Shown here piece after piece: positions 1-17,572 of a stretch of DNA of 29,035 nt. The notes under the pieces are model-generated. The model ran no database searches, was not told where the DNA came from, and was given only the letters and a program-made list of their open reading frames with translations. A program made the position numbers and the translations under genes. The stretch is from a virus (lineage: Duplodnaviria > Heunggongvirae > Uroviricota > Caudoviricetes). Every line of letters starts with the position of its first letter. Position 1 is the stretch's first letter. The DNA lies in the IMG/VR virus record IMGVR_UViG_2706794693_000005. The stretch is one strand, 5' to 3'.

Positions 1-224
1 ATTGAAATGTTATGATAAAAAAGAACTTTTGCATAACATTAAAATGTAATTTATCTAATCGTTTTTAATAATAAGTGTCGTATTTCTATCCTTGTACCAG
101 CTATTTGATATGTAGTGTTTGTTCATGCTATGTGGGGCTTTACACCATAGCCAGTTTATTTATACTTTATTCGTCAGCCTGAACAACTGGCATCTGCTGC
201 GCTGCGCCATCGAGAGATTGAGAA

Positions 225-824
225 ATGGCGCATATACAACTGGTCAAACAAACCTCTTCTGGTTTACTTCTCCCGGCGACGCCGGAGAGTTGCGATTTTC
301 TGCATCAAATCAAAATAGGTGAGTGGATACACGCAGACTTTAAGCGTGTGCGTAACTACGCATTCCACAAGCGTTTTTTCAAACTCCTGCAACTGGGATT
401 CGATTACTGGACTCCGGTCGGTGGGGCGATCACGCCTCGCGAACGAGAACTGCTGTCTGGTTTCGTTGATTACCTGTGCGAATCAGTTGGTCGGGAACAC
501 ACGCCAGCCCTGAGTGATGCCGCAGAGCAATACCTTAACACCGTTGCGACTCGTAGAACCCGGGATACGGCGTTGCTAAAGTCGTTTGAGGCTTTCCGCG
601 AGTGGGTAACCATTCAGGCCGGATTTTACACCGAGCATATTTATCCGGACGGTAGCCGTGGGCGTCGGGCAAAATCCATCGCTTTTGCGAATATGGACGA
701 AGTCGAGTTTCAGCAGGTTTATAAATCTGTACTGAATGTGCTGTGGAACTGGATTCTGTTCCGTAAATTCTCCTCTCAGGAGGAAGTTGAAAATGTGGCC
801 GCACAACTACTGGAGTTTGCGTAA
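225..824 (+). CDS. conserved lambdoid nin-region protein of unknown function (199 aa)
   Basis: Intact 199-codon ORF whose stop overlaps the next start (TAATG). Sits directly upstream of the YbcO-like and Q genes, as in lambdoid nin regions. No catalytic motif recognised by eye. Confidence 0.5.
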   Translation: MAHIQLVKQTSSGLLLPATPESCDFLHQIKIGEWIHADFKRVRNYAFHKRFFKLLQLGFDYWTPVGGAITPRERELLSGFVDYLCESVGREHTPALSDAAEQYLNTVATRRTRDTALLKSFEAFREWVTIQAGFYTEHIYPDGSRGRRAKSIAFANMDEVEFQQVYKSVLNVLWNWILFRKFSSQEEVENVAAQLLEFA

Positions 825-1114
825 TGGTGAATTTACGTAAAGCGGCTAAAGGCCAGATGTGCCAGATCAGAATCCCTGGCTACTGCAATCACAATCCCGA
901 AACCTCTGTGCTGGCGCATTACAGGCTGGCGGGGACGTGCGGAACAGCGACAAAACCACATGATATGCAGGCGGCGATAGCCTGTAGCTCATGCCACGAT
1001 CTAATCGACGGGCGGGTAAAAACCAGCGATTACACCAAAGAAGAATTGCGCCTGATGCATGCTGAAGGGGTTTTTCGCACACAAGAAATCTGGAGAAAGA
1101 AAGGTCATTTATGA
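824..1114 (+). CDS. YbcO-like Cys-rich putative nuclease (DUF1364-type)
   Basis: 96 aa with cysteine cluster CQIRIPGYCN...CGTATKPHD...CSSCHD. Position just upstream of Q matches the ybcO slot of DLP12-type prophages (recollection). Start overlaps upstream stop; stop overlaps Q start (ATGA). Confidence 0.6.
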   Translation: MVNLRKAAKGQMCQIRIPGYCNHNPETSVLAHYRLAGTCGTATKPHDMQAAIACSSCHDLIDGRVKTSDYTKEELRLMHAEGVFRTQEIWRKKGHL

Positions 1115-1653
1115 TTTACCCAACGAATACAGGAAAAAGCGGAGAACACCTTCGCCTCACCACGCTGGAAAGTGTCTGGATTCAGGGAAAACTACGTATG
1201 TGGGGGCGCTGGTCGTATATTGGCGGTGGCAGGTCAGGGAATATGTTCAATCAGTTGTTGGCATCCAAAAAACTGACGAAAACAGCCATTAATGAAGCCC
1301 TGCGCAGAATGAAAAAAGCGGGAATAGAGAAAGCTGAGCTGGAAGCGTTTTTGCGAGAGATGATCAACGGCAAGCAAAAGAGCTGGCTGGCGCATTGTAC
1401 TGATGCAGAGGCGTTATGTATTGATCGAGTCATAAGTGAGGTGCTGGCAGAGCATCCAGGATTGATTTGCATTCTCCGGCAACGCTATGAAGGGCGGGGG
1501 ATGACTAAGCGCAAAATGGCTGAATTGCTAAATGATGCACACCCAGAGTGGTGTTTTAGCACATGCGAAAAACGGATTGCTAATTGGTTAGCTGTTGCTG
1601 AGTATGCCCTATATATTCCCATGCGTGAATCATTTGCTGAGAAAATGGCTTGA
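1111..1653 (+). CDS. late-gene antiterminator Q-like protein
   Basis: 180 aa, last gene before a promoter/terminator pair and the lysis cassette. Contains the L-E-x-W-G-x-W style segment (LESVWIQGKLRMWGRWSYIGG) recalled from phage Q proteins. Family assignment by context and motif, not by search. Confidence 0.6.
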   Translation: MIYPTNTGKSGEHLRLTTLESVWIQGKLRMWGRWSYIGGGRSGNMFNQLLASKKLTKTAINEALRRMKKAGIEKAELEAFLREMINGKQKSWLAHCTDAEALCIDRVISEVLAEHPGLICILRQRYEGRGMTKRKMAELLNDAHPEWCFSTCEKRIANWLAVAEYALYIPMRESFAEKMA

Positions 1654-1690
1654 TTTCTTACGTATAAACTGCTTCAATTTTGCTATGCTT
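1650..1690 (+). promoter_or_regulatory. candidate PR'-like late promoter / Q-utilisation region
   Basis: TTGATT (1650-1655), 17-bp spacer, TTCAAT (1673-1678), and a second -10-like TATGCT at 1684-1689, immediately downstream of the Q stop and about 50-80 nt upstream of the terminator. Hexamers are weak matches; placement by analogy with lambda PR'/qut. Confidence 0.3.
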
Positions 1691-1733
1691 CGCAAAGCTG
1701 TATCGCGAGGCGGATTGCAGACATGGACATCGT

Positions 1734-1760
1734 AAAAAAACCGCTTAATGCGGTTTTTTT
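1734..1760 (+). terminator. rho-independent terminator (tR'-like), potentially bidirectional
   Basis: aaaaaaaccgc-ttaat-gcggttttttt: perfect stem flanked by an A7 tract upstream and a T7 tract downstream. Confidence 0.7.
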
Positions 1761-2650
1761 ACGTCAGGAAAGCAGGGGAGAATGCTGCTAGTTGGGCAAC
1801 TGGTCTTTCTGCTCCAAATTATAACAGAGACCAGTTATAGTTTCGGTGCTGTGTTTTTTTTACAATATTGTGATAACACATTGCTGGCGGGAGTTTTGAT
1901 ATTTCTTGGCAGGGGCTGATGATGCGTTATCCTGATGTCGTCAACTCATATAAAATGAGATGAGAGATCATTGCAGGGTGGTTTGTAATTCGCTGTTTAG
2001 NNNNNNNNNNNNNNNNNNNNNNNNNNNNNNNNNNNNNNNNNNNNNNNNNNNNNNNNNNNNNNNNNNNNNNNNNNNNNNNNNNNNNNNNNNNNNNNNNNNN
2101 NNNNNNNNNNNNNNNNNNNNNNNNNNNNNNNNNNNNNNNNNNNNNNNNNNNNNNNNNNNNNNNNNNNNNNNNNNNNNNNNNNNNNNNNNNNNNNNNNNNN
2201 NNNNNNNNNNNNNNNNNNNNNNNNNNNNNNNNNNNNNNNNNNNNNNNNNNNNNNNTGTATGATGAGTATTTTTTGTTTTCCTTTTTTCCAGTCATCTGAT
2301 GATGACCTGCTTCTTTTTAATCCGGATCGACATCAGTTTTTTAAGATAATTCCTGCGAGTTATATGCATAAATGCCACAAACTCCGCATTTTATGTGGTT
2401 GGGAGTTGCCGGGCGCGCAGTGAGTTTGCTAAGAAAACTCCTGCATGGTGAATCCCCCTGTGCGGTGGGGTGATACCATTAACCTTTTCTGTCGCCGACA
2501 GGTATCACGAACATTTTGTTCACCGGGAGGCACCCGGCACCATGCACTTCAATAGATTCTCTCCACATTATGGATATTCTTTCAGAATATCCCACGCAGA
2601 CTTTGTGTAAATGTTAACAAATGTGCGTTTTATTTGATCTGATTCGCTGT

Positions 2651-2680
2651 TTGAGCGTCCAAAACAACGGTATATATAAT
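2651..2680 (+). promoter_or_regulatory. sigma70-like promoter for the TolA-like lipoprotein cassette
   Basis: TTGAGC (2651-2656) and TATAAT (2675-2680) within a TATATATAAT run, spacer 16-18 bp depending on register. About 30 nt upstream of the GAGGA Shine-Dalgarno and the ATG at 2710. Confidence 0.5.
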
Positions 2681-2709
2681 CCTTTACTATATGACATATG
2701 TGAGGAAAA

Positions 2710-3138
2710 ATGGGTTTTCGTAGCGCATCAATTCTTACGTTGATTATTAGTGGGATTATTATCGGGTGCACTGATGCTGTATCGACAAATTATCATGACC
2801 GTACATCATATTACTCCGATAAAGCAATAGAGACACAGTATGTGAGTTCATCTGAACGTACTTCTGATGTTAGTGAGGATATCCGTCTGTATGCCCATCA
2901 AATCAAGAGCGCCATCGAAAAACAGTTCGGGGATGCGAGTAAGTATTCAGGAAAAGAGTGTACACTGAGAATGCATATGGCCCCGAATGGCCTTCTACTG
3001 GAGGTTAAAAGAGAAAGTGGAGACCTCGATTTATGTCGTGAAGCGATGAATGCGATAAAGAATGCTGATATACCTGCCCCCCCTTCGCCGGAAGTATATA
3101 AAGTATTTCAAAATGGGGTGCTGGATTTTAAACCCTGA
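2710..3138 (+). CDS. lipoprotein with TolA C-terminal (domain III)-like domain
   Basis: 142 aa; signal peptide with lipobox IIGC (Cys20). C-terminal ~85 aa (YAHQIKSAIEKQFGDASKYSGKECTLRMHMAPNGLLLEVKRESGDLDLCREAMNAIKNADIPAPPSPEVYKVFQNGVLDFKP) aligns closely with the recalled C-terminus of E. coli TolA (...YAGQIKSAIESKFYDASSYAGKTCTLRIKLAPDGMLLDIKPEGGDPALCQAALAAAKLAKIPKPPSQAVYEVFKNAPLDFKP). AT-rich codon usage; good SD. Confidence 0.8.
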   Translation: MGFRSASILTLIISGIIIGCTDAVSTNYHDRTSYYSDKAIETQYVSSSERTSDVSEDIRLYAHQIKSAIEKQFGDASKYSGKECTLRMHMAPNGLLLEVKRESGDLDLCREAMNAIKNADIPAPPSPEVYKVFQNGVLDFKP

Positions 3139-3288
3139 TATTTATTGTTTTGTAATAAACGGTTTCGGCTTAGGTTTGTTCTGACACAGCTACGGCACTG
3201 AGCTAAATTTAGCGGATAGTCAGCTCTGAGCCAGTGGCGGACGTAACAACTACTATTGCTGAGATTTTAATGGATTGAGGAGCAAGAA

Positions 3289-3684
3289 GTGGGATTAAAG
3301 AAAATCGTTATGTTGACTTTTTGGGTCGGTTTTGTTGCGGGATGCACACCTTTACACCCTTCAGATTGCCACAAAACTACTGCTACAGGTAGTTGCAGTT
3401 CAGGACGCTGGGATGATCAGGATGAATGGGGGGCGCAAGCGCGGGGAATCAGAGCTGCAATTAATGCCAAACTTGATGAGCCGCATAACTGGAAAGGGAA
3501 AAAATGCAGGTTGCATATGGAATTCTCTCAGGATGGCACGGCGTTAAAAATATCTACCAGTAACGGTGATAAAGCCTATTGCGAAGCGATAAAGTCCGCA
3601 GCTCATAAAGCCAAATTTCCGGCCTTCAACAATCCGGAAGTCTACAGAGATTTTCAGAAATCTGGCTTTGACATGCGAGGTTAG
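3289..3684 (+). CDS. second lipoprotein with divergent TolA domain III-like C-terminus
   Basis: 131 aa, GTG start 8 nt after a GAGGA SD; lipobox VAGC (Cys19). C-terminal part keeps the GK-C-L...DG...GD..C...AK.P...VY..F pattern of TolA-III (KGKKCRLHMEFSQDGTALKISTSNGDKAYCEAIKSAAHKAKFPAFNNPEVYRDFQ). Confidence 0.7.
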   Translation: MGLKKIVMLTFWVGFVAGCTPLHPSDCHKTTATGSCSSGRWDDQDEWGAQARGIRAAINAKLDEPHNWKGKKCRLHMEFSQDGTALKISTSNGDKAYCEAIKSAAHKAKFPAFNNPEVYRDFQKSGFDMRG

Positions 3685-3809
3685 CTCTTCAATTACTATA
3701 TCTCATTCATAGCAAACTGACAGATTTGATGATGTTCTATATACGAAACCTGTGATGTCAAGTCTGAGCTAATACAAATAAACATAATATCAGAGAAATA
3801 CATTTTATT

Positions 3810-3833
3810 AGCTCGCTACGGCGAGCTTTTTAT
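3810..3833 (+). terminator. rho-independent terminator closing the lipoprotein cassette
   Basis: agctcgc-tacg-gcgagct stem-loop followed by TTTTTAT. Confidence 0.6.
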
Positions 3834-3935
3834 ATTGCATCGTCTCCAGCATATATATCAATTAAGGCTCTGATTGATGTGTCTGAAAGCCTACACATAA
3901 TAACTATGCCATCCGTTCCGTGCGGAGGTGAGGCT

Positions 3936-4151
3936 ATGAAATCCATGGACAAAATTTCAACAGGCATTGCCTACGGCACCTCCGCAGGCAGTGCTGGCTA
4001 CTGGTTTTTACAGTTGCTCGATAGAGTAACTCCGTCACAGTGGGCTGCAATCGGTGTGCTGGGTAGTCTGGTATTTGGCCTGCTGACGTACCTGACAAAC
4101 CTTTATTTCAAGATTAAAGAAGATAAGCGCAAGGCTGCGAGAGGTGAATAA
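3936..4151 (+). CDS. S: class II holin (pinholin, phage 21 S-type) with dual start
   Basis: Translation from the ATG at 3936 gives [71 protein letters not shown] (71 aa), matching the recalled S21 pinholin including the MKSM/MDK dual-start motif. GGAGGTGAGG SD upstream. The longer ORF from the GTG at 3879 is judged an artefact. Confidence 0.85.
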
Positions 4152-4774
4152 TGCCTCCATCATTACGAAAAGTCGTTGCTGCTGCTATTGGTGGCGGAGC
4201 AATTGCTATAGCATCAGTGTTAATCACTGGCCCAAGTGGTAACGATGGTCTGGAAGGTGTCAGCTACATACCATACAAAGATATTGTTGGTGTATGGACT
4301 GTATGTCACGGGCATACNNNNNNNNNNNNNNNNNNNNNNNNNNNNNNNNNNNNNNNNNNNNNNNNNNNNNNNNNNNNNNNNNNNNNNNNNNNNNNNNNNN
4401 NNNNNNNNNNNNNNNNNNNNNNNNNNNNNNNNNNNNNNNNNNNNNNNNNNNNNNNNNNNNNNNNNNNNNNNNNNNNNNNNNNNNNNNNNNNNNNNNNNNN
4501 NNNNNNNNNNNNNNNNNNNNNNNNNNNNNNNNNNNNNNNNNNNNNNNNNNNNNNNNNNNNNNNNNNNNNNNNNNNNNNNNNNNNNNNNNNNNNNNNNNAC
4601 GTGGGTGCTGGCAATTTCAGAACATCGACGCTTCTTCGCAAAATAAACCAGGGCGATATCAAAGGCGCATGTGATCAGCTACGTCGCTGGACATATGCTG
4701 GCGGTAAGCAATGGAAAGGGCTGATGACCCGTCGTGAGATTGAGCGTGAAGTCTGTTTGTGGGGGCAGCAATGA
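4151..4774 (+). CDS. R: SAR endolysin (phage 21 R-type lysozyme), interior masked by Ns
   Basis: N-terminus [27 protein letters not shown] is a Gly/Ala-rich signal-arrest-release segment; C-terminus [57 protein letters not shown] matches recalled R21. Start overlaps holin stop; stop overlaps Rz start (ATGA). The catalytic middle lies in the 4319-4598 N block. Confidence 0.85.
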
Positions 4775-5235
4775 GCAGAGTCACCGCGATTATCTCCGCT
4801 CTGGTTATCTGCATCATCGTCTGCCTGTCATGGGCTGTTAATCATTACCGTGATAACGCCATTACCTACAAAGCCCAGCGCGACAAAAATGCCAGAGAAC
4901 TGAAGCTGGCGAACGCGGCAATTACTGACATGCAGATGCGTCAGCGTGATGTTGCTGCGCTCGATGCAAAATACACGAAGGAGTTAGCTGATGCGAAAGC
5001 TGAAAATGATGCTCTGCGTGATGATGTTGCCGCTGGTCGTCGTCGGTTGCACATCAAAGCAGTCTGTCAGTCAGTGCGTGAAGCCACCACCGCCTCCGGC
5101 GTGGATAATGCAGCCTCCCCCCGACTGGCAGACACCGCTGAACGGGATTATTTCACCCTCCGGGAACGACTGGTAATGATGCAGGCCCAACTTGAAGGTG
5201 CTCAGCAATACATAACCGAGCAGTGTTTAAAGTAA
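4771..5235 (+). CDS. Rz: Rz inner-membrane spanin (i-spanin)
   Basis: From the ATG at 4771: [29 protein letters not shown]..., N-terminal TM plus coiled-coil periplasmic domain, near-identical to recalled lambda Rz. The track start at 4759 is a GTG extension. Confidence 0.85.
4991..5176 (+). CDS. Rz1: Rz1 outer-membrane lipoprotein spanin (o-spanin), embedded in +1 frame within Rz
   Basis: 61 aa, lipobox VVGC, proline-rich mature part ([22 protein letters not shown]); near-identical to recalled lambda Rz1. Lies entirely inside Rz in the +1 frame. Confidence 0.8.
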
Positions 5236-5259
5236 AATCTTAACTACAATATGATTCAN

Positions 5260-6843
5260 NNNNNNNNNNNNNNNNNNNNNNNNNNNNNNNNNNNNNNNNN
5301 NNNNNNNNNNNNNNNNNNNNNNNNNNNNNNNNNNNNNNNNNNNNNNNNNNNNNNNNNNNNNNNNNNNNNNNNNNNNNNNNNNNNNNNNNNNNNNNNNNNN
5401 NNNNNNNNNNNNNNNNNNNNNNNNNNNNNNNNNNNNNNNNNNNNNNNNNNNNNNNNNNNNNNNNNNNNNNNNNNNNNNNNNNNNNNNNNNNNNNNNNNNN
5501 NNNNNNNNNNNNNNNNNACTTTCGTTATATTTTTTTGCATTGGTGGCGGAGCGTGGTATACAACTAAGAAATCTGGCATTCAATTACGTACCCGTGATGG
5601 GTTTATTATAATTGTAATGTTTTGGATTTTGTTTTCTGTTATTAGTGCATTCCCTTTATGGATTGACTCAGAACTTAATTTAACGTTCATTGATGCTCTG
5701 TTTGAAGGGGTTTCTGGAATAACAACAACAGGAGCAACTGTAATTGATGATGTTAGTTCATTACCTCGGGCATATTTGTACTATCGGTCACAGTTAAATT
5801 TTATAGGTGGTTTAGGAGTTATTGTTCTGGCGGTTGCAGTATTGCCATTATTGGGTATTGGTGGTGCAAAGCTTTATCAGTCAGAAATGCCGGGGCCATT
5901 TAAGGATGACAAACTCACTCCCCGCCTGGCCGATACGTCACGGACACTGTGGATAACTTATTCTTTATTAGGTATTGCTTGTATTGTCTGTTATAGACTT
6001 GCAGGAATGCCTTTGTTTGATGCTATTTGTCACGGGATTTCCACAGTTTCGCTTGGTGGTTTCTCAACTCATAGCGAGAGTATCGGATATTTTAATAACT
6101 ATTTGGTTGAGCTGGTGGCTGGTTCTTTTTCCCTGCTATCGGCTTTCAACTTCACTCTTTGGTATATTGTTATTAGCAGAAAAACGATAAAACCTTTAAT
6201 CAGAGATATTGAACTTCGTTTCTTTCTGTTAATAGCCTTAGGGGTGATCATTGTTACCTCTTTCCAGGTCTGGCATATAGGTATGTATGACTTGCATGGA
6301 AGTTTTATTCATTCGTTTTTTCTTGCCAGCTCCATGCTCACTGATAATGGTTTAGCTACGCAGGATTATGCAAACTGGCCCACGCACACGATAGTGTTTT
6401 TGCTGTTGTCAAGTTTCTTTGGGGGATGTATAGGTTCAACCTGTGGTGGAATTAAGTCACTTCGATTTCTTATACTTTTCAAACAAAGCAAACACGAGAT
6501 AAATCAGCTTTCTCATCCCAGAGCGTTGTTGAGTGTAAATGTAGGAGGGAAGATAGTTACAGATCGTGTAATGAGGTCTGTATGGAGTTTCTTTTTTCTT
6601 TATACTCTCTTCACGGTGTTTTTTATACTGGTGTTAAATGGTATGGGATATGATTTTCTTACATCATTTGCAACAGTGGCTGCATGTATTAATAATATGG
6701 GATTAGGTTTTGGGGCTACTGCATCGTCATTCGGAGTGCTTAATGACATTGCAAAATATTTAATGTGCATAGCTATGATTCTTGGTCGCCTTGAAATTTA
6801 TCCTGTTATTATATTGTTTTCAGGTTTTTTTTGGCGCTCCTAA
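5260..6843 (+). CDS. trkG: TrkG potassium uptake protein (TrkH/TrkG family), start hidden in N block
   Basis: Visible 441 aa from 5518 (TFVIFFCIGGGAWYTTKKSGIQLRTRDGFIIIVMFWILF...ILGRLEIYPVIILFSGFFWRS) matches recalled E. coli K-12 Rac-prophage TrkG essentially residue for residue. Multi-pass membrane protein, strongly AT-rich. True start lies inside the 5260-5517 mask; 5260 is an outer bound. Confidence 0.85.
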   Translation, partial: XXXXXXXXXXXXXXXXXXXXXXXXXXXXXXXXXXXXXXXXXXXXXXXXXXXXXXXXXXXXXXXXXXXXXXXXXXXXXXXXXXXXXXTFVIFFCIGGGAWYTTKKSGIQLRTRDGFIIIVMFWILFSVISAFPLWIDSELNLTFIDALFEGVSGITTTGATVIDDVSSLPRAYLYYRSQLNFIGGLGVIVLAVAVLPLLGIGGAKLYQSEMPGPFKDDKLTPRLADTSRTLWITYSLLGIACIVCYRLAGMPLFDAICHGISTVSLGGFSTHSESIGYFNNYLVELVAGSFSLLSAFNFTLWYIVISRKTIKPLIRDIELRFFLLIALGVIIVTSFQVWHIGMYDLHGSFIHSFFLASSMLTDNGLATQDYANWPTHTIVFLLLSSFFGGCIGSTCGGIKSLRFLILFKQSKHEINQLSHPRALLSVNVGGKIVTDRVMRSVWSFFFLYTLFTVFFILVLNGMGYDFLTSFATVAACINNMGLGFGATASSFGVLNDIAKYLMCIAMILGRLEIYPVIILFSGFFWRS

Positions 6844-6980
6844 TATATGGCTGATTTATAATTGTGAGTTTAATATTATGTTGACTCACTCATTGATCCA
6901 ATACCTAACTTTACCAGCAACACCTCCGCCCCCAGTAGCACTGGCTGCTGGGGTGCGTTTTATTCATAAAGCAAGGCTGT

Positions 6981-7769
6981 ATGAGCGAGAAATTAAAGAT
7001 AGTCTATCGCCCATTACAAGAATTGTCACCGTATGCGCACAACGCCAGGACGCACAGTACTGAGCAGGTGGCACAACTGGTAGAAAGTATTAAGCAATTC
7101 GGCTGGACTAATCCGGTGCTGATTGACGAAAAGGGCGAAATTATTGCGGGTCACGGTCGTGTTATGGCGGCTGAAATGCTCAAAATGGATTCTGTTCCGG
7201 TCATTGTTCTGTCTGGCCTGACGGATGAGCAGAAAAAGGCGTACCGCCTGGCAGATAATCGCCTGCCGATGAATGCTGGCTGGGATGAAGATCTGTTGCG
7301 GATGGAGCTGTCGGACCTAATCAATGCTGATTTTGATGTCTCCCTGACAGGCTTCATCCCGGCAGAAATTGATGAACTGTTGACGGATGTTTTGCCCGGT
7401 ACAGGAAATGAGGAGGAGCCGTATACGACGAAAATTGATACGCCTGTTTATGAGCCGTCAGGCGGTAAACCGGATATCAGTGAACTGTACGACGATACGA
7501 AAACTCAGGAGCTGATCAGCCGGATACGTTCGGCGTCCCTTGATCCTGATATTGAGAAATTCCTCCTGTGTGCAGCAGAACGTCACACGGTGTTTAATTT
7601 CAGCAGAATTGCGGACTATTACGCTCATGCCCCCGCTGAAATTCAGTGCCTTTTCGAGGAGTCGGCGCTGGTGATCATTGATTATCAGCAGGCTATTGAA
7701 AATGGATTTGTCCGAATGACGCAGCGCATGGTGGAGATCATGCATGGCGGGGAGGAGGAATATGCGTGA
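6981..7769 (+). CDS. ParB-like nuclease-domain protein (YnaK-like)
   Basis: 262 aa; N-terminal region (YRPLQELSPYAHNARTHSTEQVAQLVESIKQFGWTNPVLIDEKGEIIAGHGRVMAA) has the ParB/sulfiredoxin N-terminal-domain pattern including the GxxR segment. Acidic C-terminal half. Follows trkG as ynaK does in K-12 Rac (recollection). Confidence 0.65.
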   Translation: MSEKLKIVYRPLQELSPYAHNARTHSTEQVAQLVESIKQFGWTNPVLIDEKGEIIAGHGRVMAAEMLKMDSVPVIVLSGLTDEQKKAYRLADNRLPMNAGWDEDLLRMELSDLINADFDVSLTGFIPAEIDELLTDVLPGTGNEEEPYTTKIDTPVYEPSGGKPDISELYDDTKTQELISRIRSASLDPDIEKFLLCAAERHTVFNFSRIADYYAHAPAEIQCLFEESALVIIDYQQAIENGFVRMTQRMVEIMHGGEEEYA

Positions 7770-8694
7770 TGATTTTTGCGCCTTTATTCTGACTCACGGG
7801 CGACCGGACAAAGTTCTGACTTACCGGACGTTGCGTCGTGCTGGCTATACCGGGAAAATTTTTATCGTTGTTGATGATGAAGATAAGACACGGCATCAGT
7901 ACATGGCTGAATTTGGTGAACAGGTGCTGGTATTTTCCAAAGCCGATATTGCTAGTCGTTTTGACGAAGCCGATAATTTTAGTGACCGCCGCTCAATTTT
8001 TTACGCCCGTAATGCCTGTTTCGACCAGGCAAAACTGGTCGGGTGTAAATACTTCATTCAGCTCGATGATGATTATCACGAGTTCCAGTTTCGGGTGGAT
8101 CGCAACTATGACCAGGCCTATTTCCCGATAAGGAAACTGGATGAGATCCTTTCTGAAATGCTTGCGTACTACGAATCAATACCTGCTCTTTCCATCGCTA
8201 TGTCGCAGGGCGGGGATTTTCTTGGTGACAATGGCGGCCATGCTTCGTGGGTGAAACGCAAGGCAATGAACAGCTTTATCTGTTCGGTTGATCGACCGTT
8301 CTCATTCATGGGGCGCATTAACGAGGATGTGAATACGTACACGAATCTCGGTCGCTGTGGTGAATTGTTTATGACGATCGGTGCTGTCCAGTTAGGGCAG
8401 AAACAGACGCAGAAAAACAGCGGCGGAATGACCGAGCTGTATCTGGATTCCGGAACCTACGTTAAAAGTTTTTACTCCGTCATGTATGCGCCGTCGTGCG
8501 TAAAAATCTCACTTATGGGTGCCAGTCATAAACGCATTCACCATCAGGTCACCTGGAACAACGCTGCAGTAAAAATCCTTCACGAAAAATACAGGAAGAA
8601 GACACCCTGCATATCAATGGGGGTGACAAATGATTCCGTATTCGAAAGTCGAGTCTCTGGCAGCGTGCCGGATGACTGCACAACAAATCGCTGA
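7744..8694 (+). CDS. GT-A-fold glycosyltransferase-like protein (DxD motif), function unknown
   Basis: 316 aa, no TM segments. Order of motifs matches GT2-type enzymes: FCAFILTHGRPDK (compare IPTYNR), IFIVVDDEDK, then YFIQLDDDYHEF with DDD at residues 108-110. Start overlaps the ParB-like gene by 26 nt. Assignment is by motif inspection only. Confidence 0.5.
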   Translation: MAGRRNMRDDFCAFILTHGRPDKVLTYRTLRRAGYTGKIFIVVDDEDKTRHQYMAEFGEQVLVFSKADIASRFDEADNFSDRRSIFYARNACFDQAKLVGCKYFIQLDDDYHEFQFRVDRNYDQAYFPIRKLDEILSEMLAYYESIPALSIAMSQGGDFLGDNGGHASWVKRKAMNSFICSVDRPFSFMGRINEDVNTYTNLGRCGELFMTIGAVQLGQKQTQKNSGGMTELYLDSGTYVKSFYSVMYAPSCVKISLMGASHKRIHHQVTWNNAAVKILHEKYRKKTPCISMGVTNDSVFESRVSGSVPDDCTTNR

Positions 8695-8881
8695 CGTTCT
8701 GGATGTTGATCTGAACCGACTGAAAGAAAATCGGGAAGCAATGACAGATTTTTATGCGGCCATCCGTAAGGGCAGAGCGAAAGGTGAAGCCGAGTTACGA
8801 GCGGCATTGTTTAAGCTTGCCAGAAAAGGGGATGCCTTTGCTCTGCGCGAACTACTCAGGGTGGATAAAAATCAGGACTAA
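8630..8881 (+). CDS. small hypothetical protein (83 aa), possibly DNA-binding
   Basis: ATG at 8630 preceded by GGGGGTGA; overlaps the 3' end of the upstream gene by 65 nt and ends 3 nt before the terminase small subunit start. Basic, helical-looking sequence (RKGRAKGEAELRAALFKLARKGDAFALRELL). Confidence 0.4.
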   Translation: MIPYSKVESLAACRMTAQQIADVLDVDLNRLKENREAMTDFYAAIRKGRAKGEAELRAALFKLARKGDAFALRELLRVDKNQD

Positions 8882-8884
8882 CTG

Positions 8885-9979
8885 ATGAGCAGACCGGACT
8901 GGGGGGCGTTGCAGCAGGAGTATATTGCTGAATACACCCGCTCCGGTATATCTCCGGTGGCATGGTGTGAAGCAAGGGGACTGAATTACGCAACAGCCCG
9001 TCGTTACATCAAAAAAACTCCGAAAAATGCGCAGACAGAAATGTGCAAAACTGCGCAAAAAAGTGCGCAGAAAAAATCTGCGCAGACTGCACAAAAGCGG
9101 AACGAAAAATCTCAGGAAAAAAAGCCAGTATTCGATGCGGGCCTGAATGAGGGCGACGCGGAGGAATTTTCGTTCTGTCCCGATGAATTCGGCATTTCTG
9201 ACCAGCAGGCTAAGTTTGCGATGCTTGTTGCTCAGGGTAAAAAGCCGACAGAGGCGTACCGACTAGCCGGTTATGAGGGGCAAGGTGCGACAGCTAACAG
9301 CAACGCCAGTCGTATGCTTAGAAATGCCAGGGTTTTTCGCGCTATCAGCTACTTCCGCAATCAGTACCAGAAACGCTATACCGCAGACCTGGATTTACTA
9401 GTGAGTCAGTTGATGGCTATTGTCCTGGCCGACCCCAATCAGCTTGCACAATTTCGCCGTGTTAACTGCCGTTATTGCTGGGGCGAGAATCATCTCTACC
9501 AGTGGCGCGATATAGCAGAATTCGACAAGGCAGCGGCGCAGGCTTCCAGAGATGGCAAACCCGAACCGGAATATGGAGGCCTCGGCTTTGTTGATAACGC
9601 CATACCCAATCCGGACTGCCCGAAGTGCTGCGGTGAGGGAACGGGACAGCTTTATATGGCTGATACCACTCTGCTTGATGGGGATGCGCGGCAATTATAT
9701 GCAGGGGCAAAATTCGGAAAATTCGGCGTTGAGATCCTGCTGGAGGATAAGGCTGCCGCCCGGCGTGAATTGTTGCGTTTGTTTTCTGCTGGCGGGGCTT
9801 TATGTGCAGATAAGCGGCTACGGGAACTGGAAATTGAACGGCGCAGAATGGAAAACCAGAAGCTGCGCAAAGAGATCGAAACGGTGGAAGATAATGAACA
9901 TCCCCAGCCTGTGGCGATCAATATTAATGTGGTTGATGCCAGAGTAAGGAGTGATGAAGATGATCTCTCCGACGCTTAA
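8885..9979 (+). CDS. terminase small subunit with N-terminal HTH, Lys-rich linker and Cys-rich C-terminal extension
   Basis: 364 aa immediately upstream of and overlapping the large terminase. Residues ~95-160 (SDQQAKFAMLVAQGKKPTEAYRLAGYEGQGATANSNASRMLRNARVFRAI) resemble the Terminase_2-type small-subunit core. N-terminal HTH-like segment; CRYCWG...CPKCCG zinc-ribbon-like pairs. Confidence 0.6.
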   Translation: MSRPDWGALQQEYIAEYTRSGISPVAWCEARGLNYATARRYIKKTPKNAQTEMCKTAQKSAQKKSAQTAQKRNEKSQEKKPVFDAGLNEGDAEEFSFCPDEFGISDQQAKFAMLVAQGKKPTEAYRLAGYEGQGATANSNASRMLRNARVFRAISYFRNQYQKRYTADLDLLVSQLMAIVLADPNQLAQFRRVNCRYCWGENHLYQWRDIAEFDKAAAQASRDGKPEPEYGGLGFVDNAIPNPDCPKCCGEGTGQLYMADTTLLDGDARQLYAGAKFGKFGVEILLEDKAAARRELLRLFSAGGALCADKRLRELEIERRRMENQKLRKEIETVEDNEHPQPVAININVVDARVRSDEDDLSDA

Positions 9980-11261
9980 TGTGCCTCAGGCGCGATTTCT
10001 TTCAATGCCCCATAAATTTAAAGCCTATATTGCTGGTTTTGGCTCGGGCAAAACATGGGTTGGGTGTGGCGGCATATGCAAGGGGATTTGGGAGCATCCA
10101 GGTATAAATCAGGGATATTTTGCGCCAACGTATCCCCAAATTCGCGATATTTTTTACCCTACAGTGGAAGAAGTTGCTGCTGACTGGGGATTGAACGTAA
10201 AAATTAATGAGGGAAATAAAGAGGTTCACTTTTATTACGGACGCCAGTATCGGGGAACCACTATCTGCAGATCGATGGAGAAGCCACAAACGATCGTCGG
10301 TTTCAAAATTGGTAATGCGTTGGTGGATGAACTGGACATTTTGCCGAAGGAAAAAGCCAGAACGGCGTGGCGCAAGATAATTGCACGTATGCGTTATAAG
10401 ATTGATGGACTTCGCAACGGTATTGACGTTACAACCACGCCGGAAGGATTCAAATTTGTCTACGAGCAGTTTGTTAAAGCCGTGCGTGAAAAAACAGAGC
10501 TGGCCTCACTGTATGGTCTGGTGCAGGCATCTACTTTCGATAATGAAAAGAACCTGCCAGCAGATTACATTCCTTCGCTTCTTGAATCATACCCTCCAGA
10601 GCTGATTAAAGCCTATCTTCGAGGACAGTTTACTAACCTGACAAGTGGTACTGTTTACCATCAGTTTGACCGGAAACTGAATAATTGCGAAGAAGTGGAG
10701 CAGCCAGGGGAGCCGATTTATATTGGGATGGATTTTAACGTTGGAAAGATGGCGGGAATCGTCCATGTGCTGCGTTTGGGGCTTCCATGTGCGGTAACTG
10801 AAATCATCAATGCCTACGATACGCCGGATATGATCCGCATCATTAAAGAACGCTTCTGGCTGTATGATGGGAATGATTACCGGAAAGTGAGGGAAATTTA
10901 TATTTATCCAGATGCTTCCGGGGATTCCAGAAAATCAAGTAACGCAAGTACGACGGATATAGCCCAGCTTAAGCAGGCTGGTTTTAACGTTGTGGTGAAC
11001 AGCTCGAACCCGCCAGTAAAAGATCGCGTTAACTCAATGAATGCAATGTTCTGCAATGCCAATGGTGAGCGTCGCTATAAAGTTAATGTGAAGCGTTGCC
11101 CGTTATATGCCGAATCTCTGGAGCAACAGGTCTGGGATGAGAAGGGGGAGCCTGATAAAAAATCTGGCAATGATCACCCGAATGATGCCGGAGGTTATTT
11201 CATCGTTAAGCAATTCCCTATTGTCAAACCGACCGGAAGAGTCACATCACTTCGGATTTAA
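9960..11261 (+). CDS. terminase large subunit (ATPase/nuclease)
   Basis: Walker A GFGSGKTWVG near the N-terminus and Walker B-like ALVDELD about 100 residues later. AGGAG SD at 9947-9951 favours the ATG at 9960 over the track GTG at 9951. Followed directly by the portal gene. Confidence 0.8.
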   Translation: MISPTLNVPQARFLSMPHKFKAYIAGFGSGKTWVGCGGICKGIWEHPGINQGYFAPTYPQIRDIFYPTVEEVAADWGLNVKINEGNKEVHFYYGRQYRGTTICRSMEKPQTIVGFKIGNALVDELDILPKEKARTAWRKIIARMRYKIDGLRNGIDVTTTPEGFKFVYEQFVKAVREKTELASLYGLVQASTFDNEKNLPADYIPSLLESYPPELIKAYLRGQFTNLTSGTVYHQFDRKLNNCEEVEQPGEPIYIGMDFNVGKMAGIVHVLRLGLPCAVTEIINAYDTPDMIRIIKERFWLYDGNDYRKVREIYIYPDASGDSRKSSNASTTDIAQLKQAGFNVVVNSSNPPVKDRVNSMNAMFCNANGERRYKVNVKRCPLYAESLEQQVWDEKGEPDKKSGNDHPNDAGGYFIVKQFPIVKPTGRVTSLRI

Positions 11262-11263
11262 TT

Positions 11264-12572
11264 ATGGCTGATATATCAACACCCAACCTCGACTATAACG
11301 ATATGCTGGAGGCGTGGGATATTAACGACGCACTGATGGGCGGTACGCTTGAAATGCGCAGGCAGGGGGAAAATTATCTCCCAAAATGGCCTAACGAAGA
11401 TGAAGACGCTTATAAAAAACGCCTGTCTGTGGCTACGCTACTTCCTGTGTATGAAGAAAGCATCAAGCAAAATATTGGGCGCATATTTGCAGAGCCGACA
11501 GTATTGAGTGAGGAAACGCCGGCAAAAATCAGGGAATATGNNNNNNNNNNNNNNNNNNNNNNNNNNNNNNNNNNNNNNNNNNNNNNNNNNNNNNNNNNNN
11601 NNNNNNNNNNNNNNNNNNNNNNNNNNNNNNNNNNNNNNNNNNNNNNNNNNNNNNNNNNNNNNNNNNNNNNNNNNNNNNNNNNNNNNNNNNNTAAAAGAGG
11701 TCATCATTATTGATGGTGATGATTTCGGGCAGAAGAAGGTGGAGCAGATCCGCCATATTATGCCCCGTCGAGTTGAAATTTATCGACGTAGCGAAGGCAC
11801 TAATGGCGAATCTGTCTGGACGCTTCATGAGTCATGGAATACCAGCCGTGATGATATTCCTCTGGTAACACTGTACACGAAGAAAACAGGATTTATGCGT
11901 GGTACACCGCCATTGCTTAATCTTGGCTTGCTGAATATCAAGCACTGGCAAAGCCAGAGCGAGCAGGACAATATTCTTCATGTTGCCCGCGTTCCATTGC
12001 TGGTGGCCTACGGGCTGGACAGGAATGAAGAACTGACGGTTGGTGCATCCACCGCTACGATTTTTGAGGACAGAACAAAAAATGGCCTCGAATATGTTGA
12101 ACATAGTGGCGCAGCGATAGAATCTGGCGAAACATCACTTGAGAAGCTGGAAAATCAGATGCGTCATGCCGGCGCTAAACTTCTGCGTGCTGAAAATACA
12201 TCCACCAAATCTGTTGATCAGACTAATGAAGAGCGAATGCAGGAAAACTCGCCGCTTTATACAATGGCGAACTCCCTCGAAGATGCCCTCGATAATATTC
12301 TCCAGATAATGGCGGAATGGATCGGAGAGAGTTGCGGTGGCAATGTGGATGTGCGCACTGAACTGGATGTATCTGCCCAGGTGTTTGACTCATCCTCCGC
12401 GCTGGCTGTTCAGTCATTGCGTCAGGGCGGTGATATACGTCAGATTGATGCGGTTCGGGTGTTGCAGGCGTTGAAATTTATCGATCAGGATTCCCGTCCA
12501 GAGGAAGTGATCGATGAATTAAAAAATCAGAGTGTAATGCTGATGGAAATCAATGATGCAAACCGTGAATGA
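11264..12572 (+). CDS. portal protein (interrupted by N block 11541-11691)
   Basis: Positioned between large terminase and the Mu-F-like head morphogenesis gene. The two visible parts are in different frames across the mask, so the mask evidently does not preserve original length. Assignment by gene order and size only. Confidence 0.55.
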
Positions 12573-13668
12573 ACGGCTGCGTGATGAATCAATTGCTCAT
12601 GCAGTCTGGATATCCCGCTATAGCACTGGCGTGGCTGCCAGAATGGTGAAAATACTGAATGACAGCGATGCGGAACTTACTGCTCGCCTGCTGATAGCAC
12701 TGGACAGCCTCGATCCAGGTAGTTTTACCGTTAAGCGCCTGGAGTCACTTCTGGCGAGCGTCAGAGAGGTTAACCGCACTGCTATTAACAGCATGTTTAC
12801 CAGTCTCTCCGGAGAGCTGAACGAGCTGGCAATTTATGAGGCTGGTTATCAGTTAAGTCTGTTTGATTCTATGCTACCTGATTTTGTTGCTGATGTTCAC
12901 CCTCTGGTTGGTATCTCTCCTGATGCACTTTATGCCGCTGCAATGGCGCGACCATTCCAGGGACGACTGCTCAGTGAGTGGGCCTCAGATCTTGAGGCGG
13001 ATCGGCTCAGACGCATAACAAATACAGTGCGTCAGGGTTTTTTGCTGGGGGATACCAATGAGCAGATCGCAAGAAAAATTCGGGGACATGTCAGTAAGGG
13101 ATTTCAGGATGGTGCATTGCAGATGAGCCGGGCTAATGCGGCCAGCATTGCAAAAACAGCGGTTGGACATCTTGCTGCTACTGCCCGTGAGAGTTTTGCC
13201 AGCGCGAATAATGATTTGATTAAGGGTAAGCAATGGTTATCAACGCTTGATAATCGTACTACGCCACAATGTCGAATCAGGGATCGCCTCAAATATACGC
13301 TGAATAATAAACCTGTAGGTCACAGCGTGCCTTATTTGCAGGGGCCGGGAAAAATTCATTTCTGCTGCCGCTCAACGGAAACGTTCATTCTGAAATCAGC
13401 GAAGGAACTGGGTATTGATGTTCGCGATATTTCCCCGGCTGAGCGGGCCAGCATGGATGGCGTGGTGGCCGGAGATACAACCTACAGGGAATGGTTTTTG
13501 CGTCAGCCTTACACCAGACAAAAACAGATTGTGGGGGAAAGCCGAGCAAAGCTGATTCGGGATGGTGGTATGTCGCCAGATGAATTTTACACCGATAAAG
13601 GCGAATGGCTGACGCTGAAGCAGCTCCGTGAGCGTGATGCACAGGTATTCAGAAAAGCAGGGATTTAA
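12553..13668 (+). CDS. head morphogenesis protein (Mu gpF / SPP1 gp7-like minor head protein)
   Basis: 371 aa following the portal; contains the WLSTLDNRTTPQCRIRDR segment resembling the conserved Mu F-domain motif. Confidence 0.7.
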   Translation: MMQTVNERLRDESIAHAVWISRYSTGVAARMVKILNDSDAELTARLLIALDSLDPGSFTVKRLESLLASVREVNRTAINSMFTSLSGELNELAIYEAGYQLSLFDSMLPDFVADVHPLVGISPDALYAAAMARPFQGRLLSEWASDLEADRLRRITNTVRQGFLLGDTNEQIARKIRGHVSKGFQDGALQMSRANAASIAKTAVGHLAATARESFASANNDLIKGKQWLSTLDNRTTPQCRIRDRLKYTLNNKPVGHSVPYLQGPGKIHFCCRSTETFILKSAKELGIDVRDISPAERASMDGVVAGDTTYREWFLRQPYTRQKQIVGESRAKLIRDGGMSPDEFYTDKGEWLTLKQLRERDAQVFRKAGI

Positions 13669-13687
13669 ATAAATCATTTATTACAAC

Positions 13688-13712
13688 AGGCTACCTTCGG
13701 GTGGCCTTTTTT
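13688..13712 (+). terminator. stem-loop with UUCG tetraloop plus U-run (intra-operon attenuator/terminator-like)
   Basis: aggctacc-ttcg-ggtggcct followed by TTTTTT; lies between the head morphogenesis stop (13668) and the scaffold gene. Confidence 0.4.
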
Positions 13713-13772
13713 ATTGCTGCGATCCGGATGGTGAGCAGCGTAACTGTCGGAAGACTTAAACCAGGTACTAAT

Positions 13773-14537
13773 ATGAAACTGAAAACGGTCGAGATTAACG
13801 GAAAACAATACGCAGAAATTGATACTGCTGGCCTGCCAGTTTATGTGCACGACGATGGTAAAGAAATTGGCTTCGATGCACCGCTGGCGACAAAAAAAAT
13901 TACAGAGCTTAATGGCGAGGCAAAAAATCATCGCCTGGCTAAAGAAGCTGCAGAGGAAAAACTGGCTAAGTTTGCCGCTATCGAAGACCCGAAGAAGGCG
14001 ATCGAGGCACTGGAAATGCTGTCAAAAATCGACCAGAAAAAGCTGCTCGATGCGGGACAGGTTGACCAGGTTAAGGCAGAAATTACGAAAAATTTTCAGC
14101 AGCAATTAGATGAAGAAAAGCAACGCTCTCAGATGCTGGAGAAGCAGCTTTACGATTCTATGATTGGCGGTAGTTTTGCGGGTTCAAAATATATTGCCGA
14201 TAAAATTGCGATCCCGGCAGATTTATTACAAGCCCGCTTCGGGCAGGCATTCAAAGTGGAAGAAGGGAGGATCGTTGCTTATGACGCTTCCGGCAACAAA
14301 ATTTATTCCCGCGCGAAGCCTGGCGAACTGGCGCAGTTTGATGAGGCGCTGGAGTTCCTTGTCGAAAATTACCCTCAGAAAGACTACATCCTGAAAGCCA
14401 GTGGCAACAATGGCGGCGGCTCCCGTCCGACACAGCATGATATTGGTCAGAAAACGATGAAACGCTCTGCTTTTGATGCACTGGATGTTGCAGGTAAGCA
14501 AAACGCATTGAAAGACGGTATCACAATCGTTGATTAA
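13773..14537 (+). CDS. scaffolding protein (putative)
   Basis: Highly charged, coiled-coil-like sequence (EEKLAKFAAIEDPKKAIEALEMLSKIDQKKLLDAGQVDQVKAEITKNFQQQLDEEKQRSQMLEKQL) immediately upstream of the capsid gene. The ATG at 13773 is preferred because the GTG at 13701 lies inside the upstream hairpin; start is uncertain. Confidence 0.5.
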   Translation: MKLKTVEINGKQYAEIDTAGLPVYVHDDGKEIGFDAPLATKKITELNGEAKNHRLAKEAAEEKLAKFAAIEDPKKAIEALEMLSKIDQKKLLDAGQVDQVKAEITKNFQQQLDEEKQRSQMLEKQLYDSMIGGSFAGSKYIADKIAIPADLLQARFGQAFKVEEGRIVAYDASGNKIYSRAKPGELAQFDEALEFLVENYPQKDYILKASGNNGGGSRPTQHDIGQKTMKRSAFDALDVAGKQNALKDGITIVD

Positions 14538-14635
14538 CACATTTGTCAGCTTCCGGATGGGAGCTGGTGTCAGGGCTGGATAGCTCATTACTCCATCTAT
14601 TCACAATTACGCAAATTTTTAAGGAATATTTAATT

Positions 14636-15775
14636 ATGGCTGGAAATACCCTGACCGGGTTGATCCCGACTATTTATACCGCCCTGGATGTTGTATCCCG
14701 TGAGCAGGTAGGTTTTATCCCTGCGGTAGCAAAAAACGCAAAAGCTGACGCCGCAGCAAAAGATCAGACGGTAACCGCGCCAGTTGCGCCTGAGGCGAAA
14801 ACCGAAGATATCGTACCGGGGCCGTCAGCTCCGAATACCGGTGATCAAAATATTGGCACTGTTGATGTAAAAATTACTAAATCCAAAATGGCACCGGTTA
14901 AATGGAATGGTGAAGAACAACTGGCTCTTGGCCCTTCAGGGACTTACAACACCATTCTGGCTGATCAGTTCAAGCAGGCTTTTCGCGCCCTTGCAAACGA
15001 GGTTGAGGCTGATCTTGGTGCGTTGTATTTCGGTGCTTCCCGCGCCGTGGGAACCGCAGGGACAACGCCGTTTGGTGTTAAAGATGATCTTTCTGATGCT
15101 GCTCTGGCTCGTCAGGTTCTGGAGGATAACGGCGCACCGACAACCGATCTGCAGATGGTGCTTGGCTCCACTGCCATTGCTAATTTGCGCGGAAAACAGT
15201 CTGTATTGTTTAAAGTGAATGAATCCGGCACTGAACAGCTACTGCGTGAGGGCGTGTTGGGGCGTCTGGAGGGATTCAATATTCACAGTTCGGCAGGTGT
15301 GAAACGAGCGCCAAAGGTTGCTGCAACTGGTTATCTCGTGAATGGAGAGAAAAAAGAAGGCGATGTTCTTATTTCCATTGATACTGGTTCGGGGAGTATT
15401 TCTGCAGGTCAGATTGTTACGTTCGCTGGTGATCCGAATCAGTATGTTGTGGCAGCAGCGACCAGCAATCTGATTACTCTTGCAGCGCCCGGACTGCGTC
15501 AGGATCTGGCCGATGATACTGCCATCACAGTTGTTGGGGCCTTTACTGCAAATATGGCGTTTGATCGCAACGCGTTTCTGCTGGCATCCCGTACTCCGGC
15601 AATGCCGGAAGGTGGCGATAATGCTGATGATGTAATGAATGTTACGGACCCGATTTCAGGGATTACGTTCCAGATTGCACTGTATCGTCAGTATCGCCAG
15701 GTGCGCTATGAAGTTGGACTGGCATGGGGTGTTTCATCAGTGAAGCCGGCACATGGTTGTCTGATTCTTGGTTAA
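14636..15775 (+). CDS. major capsid protein (putative)
   Basis: 379 aa from the ATG at 14636 with an AAGGA SD 10 nt upstream. Follows the scaffold gene and is followed by a hairpin, typical of a highly expressed capsid gene. The track start at 14543 is a TTG extension. Confidence 0.6.
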   Translation: MAGNTLTGLIPTIYTALDVVSREQVGFIPAVAKNAKADAAAKDQTVTAPVAPEAKTEDIVPGPSAPNTGDQNIGTVDVKITKSKMAPVKWNGEEQLALGPSGTYNTILADQFKQAFRALANEVEADLGALYFGASRAVGTAGTTPFGVKDDLSDAALARQVLEDNGAPTTDLQMVLGSTAIANLRGKQSVLFKVNESGTEQLLREGVLGRLEGFNIHSSAGVKRAPKVAATGYLVNGEKKEGDVLISIDTGSGSISAGQIVTFAGDPNQYVVAAATSNLITLAAPGLRQDLADDTAITVVGAFTANMAFDRNAFLLASRTPAMPEGGDNADDVMNVTDPISGITFQIALYRQYRQVRYEVGLAWGVSSVKPAHGCLILG

Positions 15776-15785
15776 ACATTCAAAC

Positions 15786-15805
15786 GGGGCTTCGGCCCCA
15801 TTTTT
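15786..15805 (+). terminator. stem-loop with UUCG tetraloop plus U-run downstream of capsid gene
   Basis: ggggc-ttcg-gcccc followed by aTTTTT, 11 nt after the capsid stop. Confidence 0.45.
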
Positions 15806-15817
15806 AATGGGGGGCAT

Positions 15818-15994
15818 ATGGCCGGATTAACTAAAGAGCAAAGAGCACAGCGTGAAGCCGCACAAAAAACGCAAATTGAGTTAGTGGTTATGGTGACCGA
15901 TTATCAGATGTTTCCCGGCGCACCAACTATCGCTAATGTTCATCCTGATGAAGTTGACAACTGGAAGGCTATGGGCTGGAAAACTCAGGAGTAA
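15818..15994 (+). CDS. small hypothetical protein (58 aa), absent from the ORF track
   Basis: ATG at 15818 after a GGGGG run, 58 codons (MAGLTKEQRAQREAAQKTQIELVVMVTDYQMFPGAPTIANVHPDEVDNWKAMGWKTQE), TAA at 15992-15994. Fills the gap between the capsid and connector genes exactly; below the apparent 60-aa track cutoff. Confidence 0.35.
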   Translation: MAGLTKEQRAQREAAQKTQIELVVMVTDYQMFPGAPTIANVHPDEVDNWKAMGWKTQE

Positions 15995-15997
15995 CAC

Positions 15998-16393
15998 ATG
16001 ATCACTTACGTGACCTGTGATGACGTTGATAATGCGTTTGGGAACGCCTGGACGAGTGAGAACGCTAAAAATAAAGCTGTTTTAATGGCTAATGCCTGGC
16101 TTAATGGCTTCAACCTGAAAATTAACCCATCCCGTATTCCGGAAGAGGTAAAACTTGCGGGAGCATATGCAGCCAGAATTGCCTCATTCGGTAAGTTGTT
16201 TCAGCAGAAAAATGATTCTGGCGTTGTTATCAGTAAAGCCGTGTCGGCTGACGGGGTCAGTGTATCGAAATCATTTTCTGAGTTGCCAGCAAACAGCACT
16301 GCATTGCTTGAACCCGATTTACAGCTTGCGATAGCACTGCTGAAACCGTACGGACTTAGTCGCTCACAAGTCAGGGTTGTGAGGGGGGGATAA
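15998..16393 (+). CDS. head-tail connector / DNA-packaging protein (putative)
   Basis: 131 aa, AGGAG SD, first of four tightly coupled small genes between capsid and major tail. Assignment by position. Confidence 0.45.
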   Translation: MITYVTCDDVDNAFGNAWTSENAKNKAVLMANAWLNGFNLKINPSRIPEEVKLAGAYAARIASFGKLFQQKNDSGVVISKAVSADGVSVSKSFSELPANSTALLEPDLQLAIALLKPYGLSRSQVRVVRGG

Positions 16394-16776
16394 TGGGGCT
16401 TCGTGAAGAGATTCAGTCAGAGGTTGCCGCTGCTTTTGATGAGGATTTAGCGGACGCCGTGAGTGATTTTTCTGGTTCTTACGTTACGCACCGGCACTGG
16501 GATCCTGTGACGGAAACTGGCGGCGAATCAACCGCAATCTATACCGGGCGAGGCGTGTTGACACGTTATAAGCTGGGCAGAATTGATGGGATTAATATTT
16601 TGCATGGTGACCTTAAATTAACCGCTCTGGTATGCGAGGTTACGGATAAACCAGCTGTCGACCATATTATTGAGATTTATGATCCTGTATCAAGGCAGTT
16701 ACAACGATACGAGGTAATTACAGCAAGTGTAGATCCTTCCGCATCAGTTTACTCTATCCAGTTAAGGAGAGCGTAA
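16393..16776 (+). CDS. head closure / head-tail adaptor protein (putative)
   Basis: 127 aa, start overlaps upstream stop (TAATG); position in the head-tail joining module. Confidence 0.45.
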   Translation: MGLREEIQSEVAAAFDEDLADAVSDFSGSYVTHRHWDPVTETGGESTAIYTGRGVLTRYKLGRIDGINILHGDLKLTALVCEVTDKPAVDHIIEIYDPVSRQLQRYEVITASVDPSASVYSIQLRRA

Positions 16777-17546: not shown

Positions 17547-17572
17547 CGCAATTAATGACATAGGAGGCTCCT

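Follow-up and report, generated by a model that had tools for sequence, protein, structure and literature searches.

The window is a 29,035-nucleotide stretch of viral DNA (Caudoviricetes; IMG/VR record IMGVR_UViG_2706794693_000005) that covers the late region of a prophage, without the early region or att sites. Within it, a trkG gene for a potassium transporter lies between the spanin genes and the packaging module. This placement was proposed by a sequence-only reading of the window and is upheld, with Rz/Rz1 to the left and the ParB-terminase genes to the right. The features of the locus are as follows.

1111..1653, + strand: Q-like late antiterminator gene (DUF1133); phrog_753, "anti-termination protein Q-like", 2e-79
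4771..5235, + strand: Rz i-spanin gene, intact; last backbone gene ahead of the foreign segment
4991..5176, + strand: Rz1 o-spanin gene within Rz; 61 aa with a lipobox-like LVVVGC, positioned as the phage 21 o-spanin
5236..5258, + strand: visible start of the Rz-trkG spacer and left edge of the foreign segment; 21.7% GC
5259..5517, + strand: masked block; by homology 246 bp, made up of 114 nt of a 137-nt spacer and codons 1-44 including the ATG
5518..6843, + strand: trkG codons 45-485 and stop; predicted membrane subunit of the Trk K+ uptake system, Rac-type TrkG
6844..6912, + strand: trkG 3' trailer and right end of the foreign segment; 27.5% GC
6913..6980, + strand: leader of the ParB gene, backbone DNA; 55.9% GC, common to the trkG-less SK6988 prophage
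6981..7769, + strand: ParB/Srx-domain gene, full-length; phrog_620, 1.7e-90; annotated in E. coli H1

In the annotation of near-identical genomes, the genes run on one strand in the order DUF1367, DUF1364, Q-like, two TolA-C-like genes, holin, lysozyme, Rz/Rz1, and trkG, followed by ParB/Srx, a 310-aa protein, a small protein, TerS, TerL, portal, head, tail, and J. The lengths of the window's open reading frames agree with this order. The homologue of 1111-1653 is annotated as DUF1133 in NCTC10444 and as "antitermination protein Q" in phage record ON470595, and this gene is the head of the late operon that includes trkG. Rz is 93% identical to the i-spanin of phage 21 over 152 aa in an alignment that reaches the C-terminus, and both E. 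coli H1 and NCTC10444 carry it as "lysis protein". The gene at 6981-7769 is the undeleted form of K-12 ynaK and the first gene of the packaging-side module.

Several further elements accompany these genes. An STnc100 sRNA match at 2413-2599 (+) scores 86.6 bits, above the gathering score of 47; it lies about 760 nt downstream of the Q-like gene and is probably a marker of the prophage's late-promoter leader. It is the sole Rfam match of the whole window; around trkG there are neither tRNAs nor Rfam families. The cargo slot between Q and holin contains two tandem paralogous frames at 2710-3138 and 3289-3684 (+), both assigned to phrog_5772, whose homologues in NCTC10444 bear the annotation TolA C-terminal-domain protein. 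Ahead of the small terminase gene lie three genes at 6981-8881 (+), the ParB/Srx-domain protein being the first. The second encodes a glucosyltransferase-like protein of 310-316 aa (phrog_842; "GREB1-related" in RefSeq), and the third is a small frame with partial similarity to TerS. In the NCTC10444 prophage, which is otherwise 99.95% identical, the ParB/ynaK gene (18830-19087) is annotated as a pseudogene, whereas the window copy is an intact 262-aa frame; since the two align without gaps, the difference must be a point substitution. The tail-tip genes K, I, and J at 24000-27500 have a GC content of 56-64% versus about 47% in the head and tail-shaft genes. This block is apparently a separate mosaic module, 95-97% identical to NCTC10444.

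Identity and masked start of trkG

The open frame at 5518-6843 translates into 441 residues and a stop codon, the TAA at 6841-6843. The visible protein shares 439 of its 441 residues with K-12 TrkG, from which it differs by the substitutions S330N and C458Y, and it is 100% identical to allele WP_001097893.1 of E. coli H1 and NCTC10444. At the nucleotide level, K-12 MG1655 is 99.53% identical to the window across 5518-7234, with 8 mismatches in the 1463 nt from 5518 to 6980. The near-identity to the TrkG of the K-12 Rac prophage that the first reading had proposed is thus borne out, and alignment with K-12 trkG and Rac contradicts an only distant, TrkH-family similarity.

Profile comparisons agree with this assignment. 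The Pfam TrkH profile PF02386 matches at 1.4e-143 (479.4 bits against a cutoff of 27) over profile positions 9-500 of 502, and the visible protein passes TIGR00933 with 415.9 bits (cutoff 331.15). Its score of 425.3 bits for the TrkH equivalog NF008020 is far under the cutoff of 866, which identifies it as the paralogue TrkG rather than a TrkH orthologue. Residues 44-485 of Vibrio parahaemolyticus TrkH (4J9U, 3PJZ) align collinearly and with few gaps to TrkG (E = 1e-114), and the pore-loop motifs TTTGAT, (L/I)GGFSTH, T(D/T)xG, and NN(M/L)G are aligned between TrkG and these structures. The alignment fits the family's architecture of four M1-P-M2 repeats, each with its conserved pore-loop glycine. 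Asp327, which lies five residues past the third pore-loop glycine, has been linked to Na+ dependence (PMC9898762, 2022 JBC). Both that glycine, G322, and D327 are kept in the segment SMLTDNGLATQDYANW of the window protein. Together, the alignments confirm the gene as Rac-type TrkG, an orthologue of K-12 b1363 and not a distant TrkH relative.

The window contains five runs of N, at 2001-2255, 4318-4598, 5259-5517, 11541-11691, and 23669-23864, whose lengths are not true to the DNA. The 259 N ahead of the visible trkG codons correspond to 246 bp in three genomes with flanks 98.5-100% identical. Further runs are off by up to 126 bp: near-identical genomes have 249 bp at the run of 151 N and 155 bp at that of 281 N. 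Because the runs distort length, neither frames nor ORF calls that cross them can be relied on, and the listed 530-aa ORF at 5251-6843, which reads through N, is an artefact.

Window position 5258 corresponds to position 17120 of NCTC10444 and 5518 to position 17367, and trkG occupies 17235-18692 in that genome; the mask therefore covers trkG codons 1-44 and 114 nt of leader. By homology, the ATG lies 132 nt upstream of 5518 and the N-terminus is MNTSHVRVVTHMCGF... Codons 1-44 are intact in the H1 and NCTC10444 copies, which are otherwise identical to the trkG of the window. The homology to NCTC10444 thus places the start codon inside the N block, as had been supposed. The block itself had been given as 5260-5517; its end is correct and its real start is 5259.

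Composition and edges of the AT-rich segment

The GC content of trkG is 38.3%, versus 50.4% in the spanin/lysis flank and 48.1% in the 5 kb downstream. Among 824 N-free segments of 1326 nt taken across the window (mean 48.6%, sd 4.7), the lowest four all fall within trkG. The gene had been described from its letters as much richer in AT than its flanks, and the comparison bears this out: trkG is the minimum of the window, and a GC content equal to that of the flanks is contradicted.

The two edges of the segment can be placed from its neighbors. Past the Rz stop codon of the unmasked homologue, the first 100 nt have 25% GC, down from 46-63% before it. The left edge is set at 5236 because Rz is intact and resembles phage 21 right to its C-terminus. 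On the right, homology between the window and the trkG-less prophage of E. coli SK6988 starts only at about 6913-6916. The spacer between the trkG stop and the ATG of the ParB gene (6981) had been read as 137 nt and AT-rich. Its length stands, as does its AT-richness across 6844-6912 (27.5% GC), but 6913-6980 has 55.9% GC and is packaging-module backbone rather than foreign DNA. The foreign unit therefore measures about 1.66 kb, comprising a 137-nt leader, 1458 nt of trkG, and a 69-nt trailer. The edges at 5236 and about 6912 are an addition of the present analysis. A search for flanking repeats as marks of insertion returned short chance matches in AT-rich DNA only; neither a target-site duplication nor IS-like ends turned up.

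A weak promoter-like sequence, TTTAAA-18-TATGAT, lies at about 5226-5255 (17088-17117 of NCTC10444). In the unmasked NCTC10444 leader, promoter-like sites occur at chance level, with 6 seen versus 6.8 expected from shuffled sequences. Two TATAAT hexamers at 17184 and 17212 of that genome were rejected as promoters for want of a usable -35 element. In K-12, a cloned fragment from upstream of trkG is active as a promoter in a luciferase reporter (PMC9898762). A terminator scan found no terminator-like site between Rz and trkG. Downstream of the gene, a terminator-like hairpin at 6930-6953 has a 10-bp stem with 7 GC pairs, a fold energy of -25.5 kcal/mol (z = -3.64), and a T-run that ends near 6963. 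Since this hairpin sits in backbone-shared DNA, the promoter-gene-terminator anatomy of a phage moron is present in part only.

Relatives, distribution, and the Rac prophage

The accepted view holds that trkG is foreign, based on its GC content of 38% versus 53% for trkH and on its location in Rac (PMC9898762). The nearest proteins outside Rac are 60-80% identical and occur in E. fergusonii, Citrobacter, Pectobacterium, Pantoea, Enterobacter, Buttiauxella, Serratia, Morganella, and Xenorhabdus. Four loci of such relatives have housekeeping, non-phage neighbors and a GC content near that of their flanks, with a GC3 of 43-62%; the GC3 of Rac trkG is 32%. The housekeeping context and native GC of these four loci suggest that genes of the TrkG clade are ordinary chromosomal genes outside Rac. 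Buttiauxella, Morganella, E. fergusonii, and a metagenomic contig were each rejected as donors on account of 62-80% identity, native GC, and non-phage context. The analysis thereby adds that the closest relatives outside Escherichia are native-GC chromosomal genes, and none of those examined fits a low-GC donor.

A closer and equally AT-rich copy, 93% identical, is found in E. albertii NBRC 107761 (positions 7608-11043 of the locus). It occupies a small island between yebZ-like and pphA/rsmF-like genes, adjoined by a holin fragment and an NleF-like effector gene. A homologous Rz ahead of this copy was considered and rejected, as there is no similarity and only the holin fragment and NleF-like gene lie nearby. 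Between Rac trkG and the E. albertii copy, dN/dS is 0.047 and dS is 0.92; the gene is evidently under strong purifying selection. In Shigella flexneri SFBU0723, positions 8115-14124 hold the same prophage late region, in which the block with trkG and packaging genes aligns with 38 gap openings. The trkG interval there has no ORF of at least 100 aa and is a decayed copy. This locus had been a candidate for a third low-GC Trk paralogue (47% identity reported) and was rejected as such, since it is the same prophage with an indel-ridden trkG.

In a megablast search, the 1463-nt trkG stretch is present in 1551 of 5426 complete E. coli genomes, at an identity of at least 99% in 1516; among the matches listed, 30 of 30 are annotated as trkG. 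At least 80% of the interval from trkG through TerL is contiguous in 753 of the 5426, and 599 genomes hold at least 80% of window positions 1-25000 in one place. Ten GenBank phage records, vB_EcoS-683R6 among them, carry trkG in the same position. With the same arrangement in hundreds of E. coli genomes, the trkG cargo is real but ordinary.

K-12 Rac matches the window only at 4791-5258, 5518-7234, 18694-20453, and 28858-29035, in the same order and at 98.3-99.9% identity. Absent from it are positions 1-4790 upstream of Rz, 7235-18693 (the larger part of ParB and on to the tail tube), and 20454-28857 (the larger part of the tape measure and on to J). The analysis maps the K-12 deletion junctions to 7234|18694, where ynaK is fused to ydaY, and to 20453|28858, where the N-terminus of the tape measure is fused to the lomR side. 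As K-12 keeps these four pieces only and has lost the late region, the window represents an undeleted relative of Rac.

The segment comparison thus agrees with the sequence-only reading that the late region is intact here, unlike the deleted K-12 copy. The same reading held that the window may represent a complete relative of Rac. For the late region this stands, yet such a prophage is not unusual. Completeness of the whole prophage rests on near-identical genomes because the window is late region only; in the near-identical H1 and NCTC10444 genomes, recE-racC-kilR-sieB lie upstream of the late region. That trkG resides in Rac and in abundant undeleted Rac-like prophages is already known. As foreign, low-GC, H-NS-targeted Rac cargo, the gene has reportedly been described since 1991 and was functionally characterised in 2022. 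The relevance of the locus is accordingly small beyond correct annotation.

Proposed role of trkG and its known counterparts

Identity, composition, borders, synteny, prevalence, and purifying selection of trkG come from the present analysis, and its transport properties, H-NS repression, and promoter activity are taken from work on K-12. TrkG mediates Na+-dependent K+ uptake as well as Na+ uptake, and it can replace TrkH in K-12 (PMC9898762). H-NS binds and represses K-12 trkG, whose transcript is more abundant in hns and hns stpA mutants, although the wild type is not fully silenced (PMC9898762). No growth condition was found in which deletion of K-12 trkG mattered (PMC9898762), so that a benefit to the lysogen remains a proposal.

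Taken together, trkG is very probably lysogenic-conversion cargo, or a moron, of a Rac-type lambdoid prophage. It lies between backbone genes that are adjacent or otherwise loaded in relatives, and its composition differs from theirs between the edges at 5236 and about 6912. According to this proposal, approximately 1.66 kb of foreign AT-rich DNA would have become fixed after the spanin genes, ahead of the ParB-terminase module. In the window's strain, TrkG would serve as the channel-like membrane subunit that pairs with the host's TrkA and SapD, whose genes are not part of the window, and the lysogen would gain a second Trk transporter whose K+ uptake is Na+-dependent. Transcription in the lysogen would be low and would start from the gene's own upstream region, where H-NS and StpA on the AT-rich DNA may damp trkG without silencing it fully. 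During lytic growth, Q antitermination probably also carries late-operon transcription through trkG, because the gene follows the Q-like antiterminator on the strand of that operon.

A role for the gene in the lytic cycle is conceivable because trkG is co-oriented with the Q-dependent operon and directly follows the lysis cassette with no terminator separating it from Rz. It seems quite unlikely, however, that trkG is a true late gene of active Rac-like phages, in which Na+/K+ flux supports late infection or alters membrane potential and thereby the timing of holin-triggered lysis, and the K+ role in the host is secondary. Very unlikely, too, is a primarily lytic-cycle gene, for which Q-antiterminated late transcription would provide K+ or Na+ flux that aids late infection or tunes membrane potential and with it holin timing, and any lysogen benefit would be incidental. 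The gene shares its strand with the lysis genes and directly follows them, in a Q-headed operon with no terminator-like site after Rz; this fits such a role, as does its retention in apparently complete prophages and deposited phage records. Yet trkG is intact in K-12-type remnants that lack any packaging or head genes, which argues for selection by the host rather than the virion cycle. Moreover, the same slot in related phages holds unrelated cargo or none, and K-12 trkG shows its own promoter activity (PMC9898762).

That trkG is a silenced, decaying passenger without function in the window's strain is scarcely credible: its AT-rich DNA is bound and repressed by H-NS in K-12, where deletion of the gene is without phenotype (PMC9898762), and the Shigella flexneri copy is indel-ridden, but the 441 visible codons are open and equal a widespread allele, 1516 genomes carry trkG at 99% identity or more, dN/dS is as low as 0.047, and TrkG complements TrkH loss in K-12, where H-NS silencing is incomplete (PMC9898762).

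The gene has its closest counterpart in K-12 TrkG (b1363), which has the same Rz/Rz1 remnant on the left, ynaK on the right, 137-nt spacers on both sides, and the same low GC. In K-12 Rac, ynaK is truncated and the flanking prophage deleted, whereas in the window the ParB gene is full-length and these regions are present. The Rac-like element KingRac (46.8 kb, 2019) makes particles and lysogenises K-12, and in the mouse gut it displaced the defective Rac from ttcA in an invading K-12 strain (PMC6731689). It resembles the window as an active Rac-like element; the sections of that report on which this comparison draws do not state whether KingRac carries trkG (PMC6731689). The order Q-holin-lysozyme-Rz-trkG-ParB-TerS-TerL is common to the window, H1, NCTC10444, and phage record ON470595, and in "Escherichia phage vB_EcoS-683R6" of GenBank the order likewise holds from the Q-like gene to the tail genes, trkG again following the spanins. 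Across most of the window, NCTC10444 reaches 99.9-100% identity, with 0-3 mismatches and no gaps in the blocks of 5518-23668. Relative to the undeleted Rac-like prophages, the lysozyme block of the window is mosaic, with 4318-4598 masked and homologous lengths that differ, and the tail tip past 23865 is only 95-97% identical.

The slot itself is a known site for cargo. In lambda, bor is lambdoid moron cargo located between Rz and the cos/terminase region. In phage 21, bor and a TonB-C-like gene follow the same Rz, in the slot that trkG occupies in the window, and the trkG-less SK6988 prophage still carries the ParB-TerS module. Cargo of the bor type resembles trkG in that it directly follows the spanin genes, is missing in relatives, and has a composition unlike the backbone. 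The two differ in strand and product: bor is oppositely oriented and its product is a small lipoprotein, whereas trkG runs with the late operon and specifies a large polytopic transporter.

Within the Trk family, the core-genome protein TrkH shares fold family, length, and pore-loop motifs with TrkG and is its paralogue. TrkG depends on Na+ for K+ uptake and carries Na+ as well, whereas TrkH does neither (PMC9898762). The 60-80% identical proteins of other Enterobacterales are full-length members of the TrkH family that stand nearer to TrkG than TrkH does.
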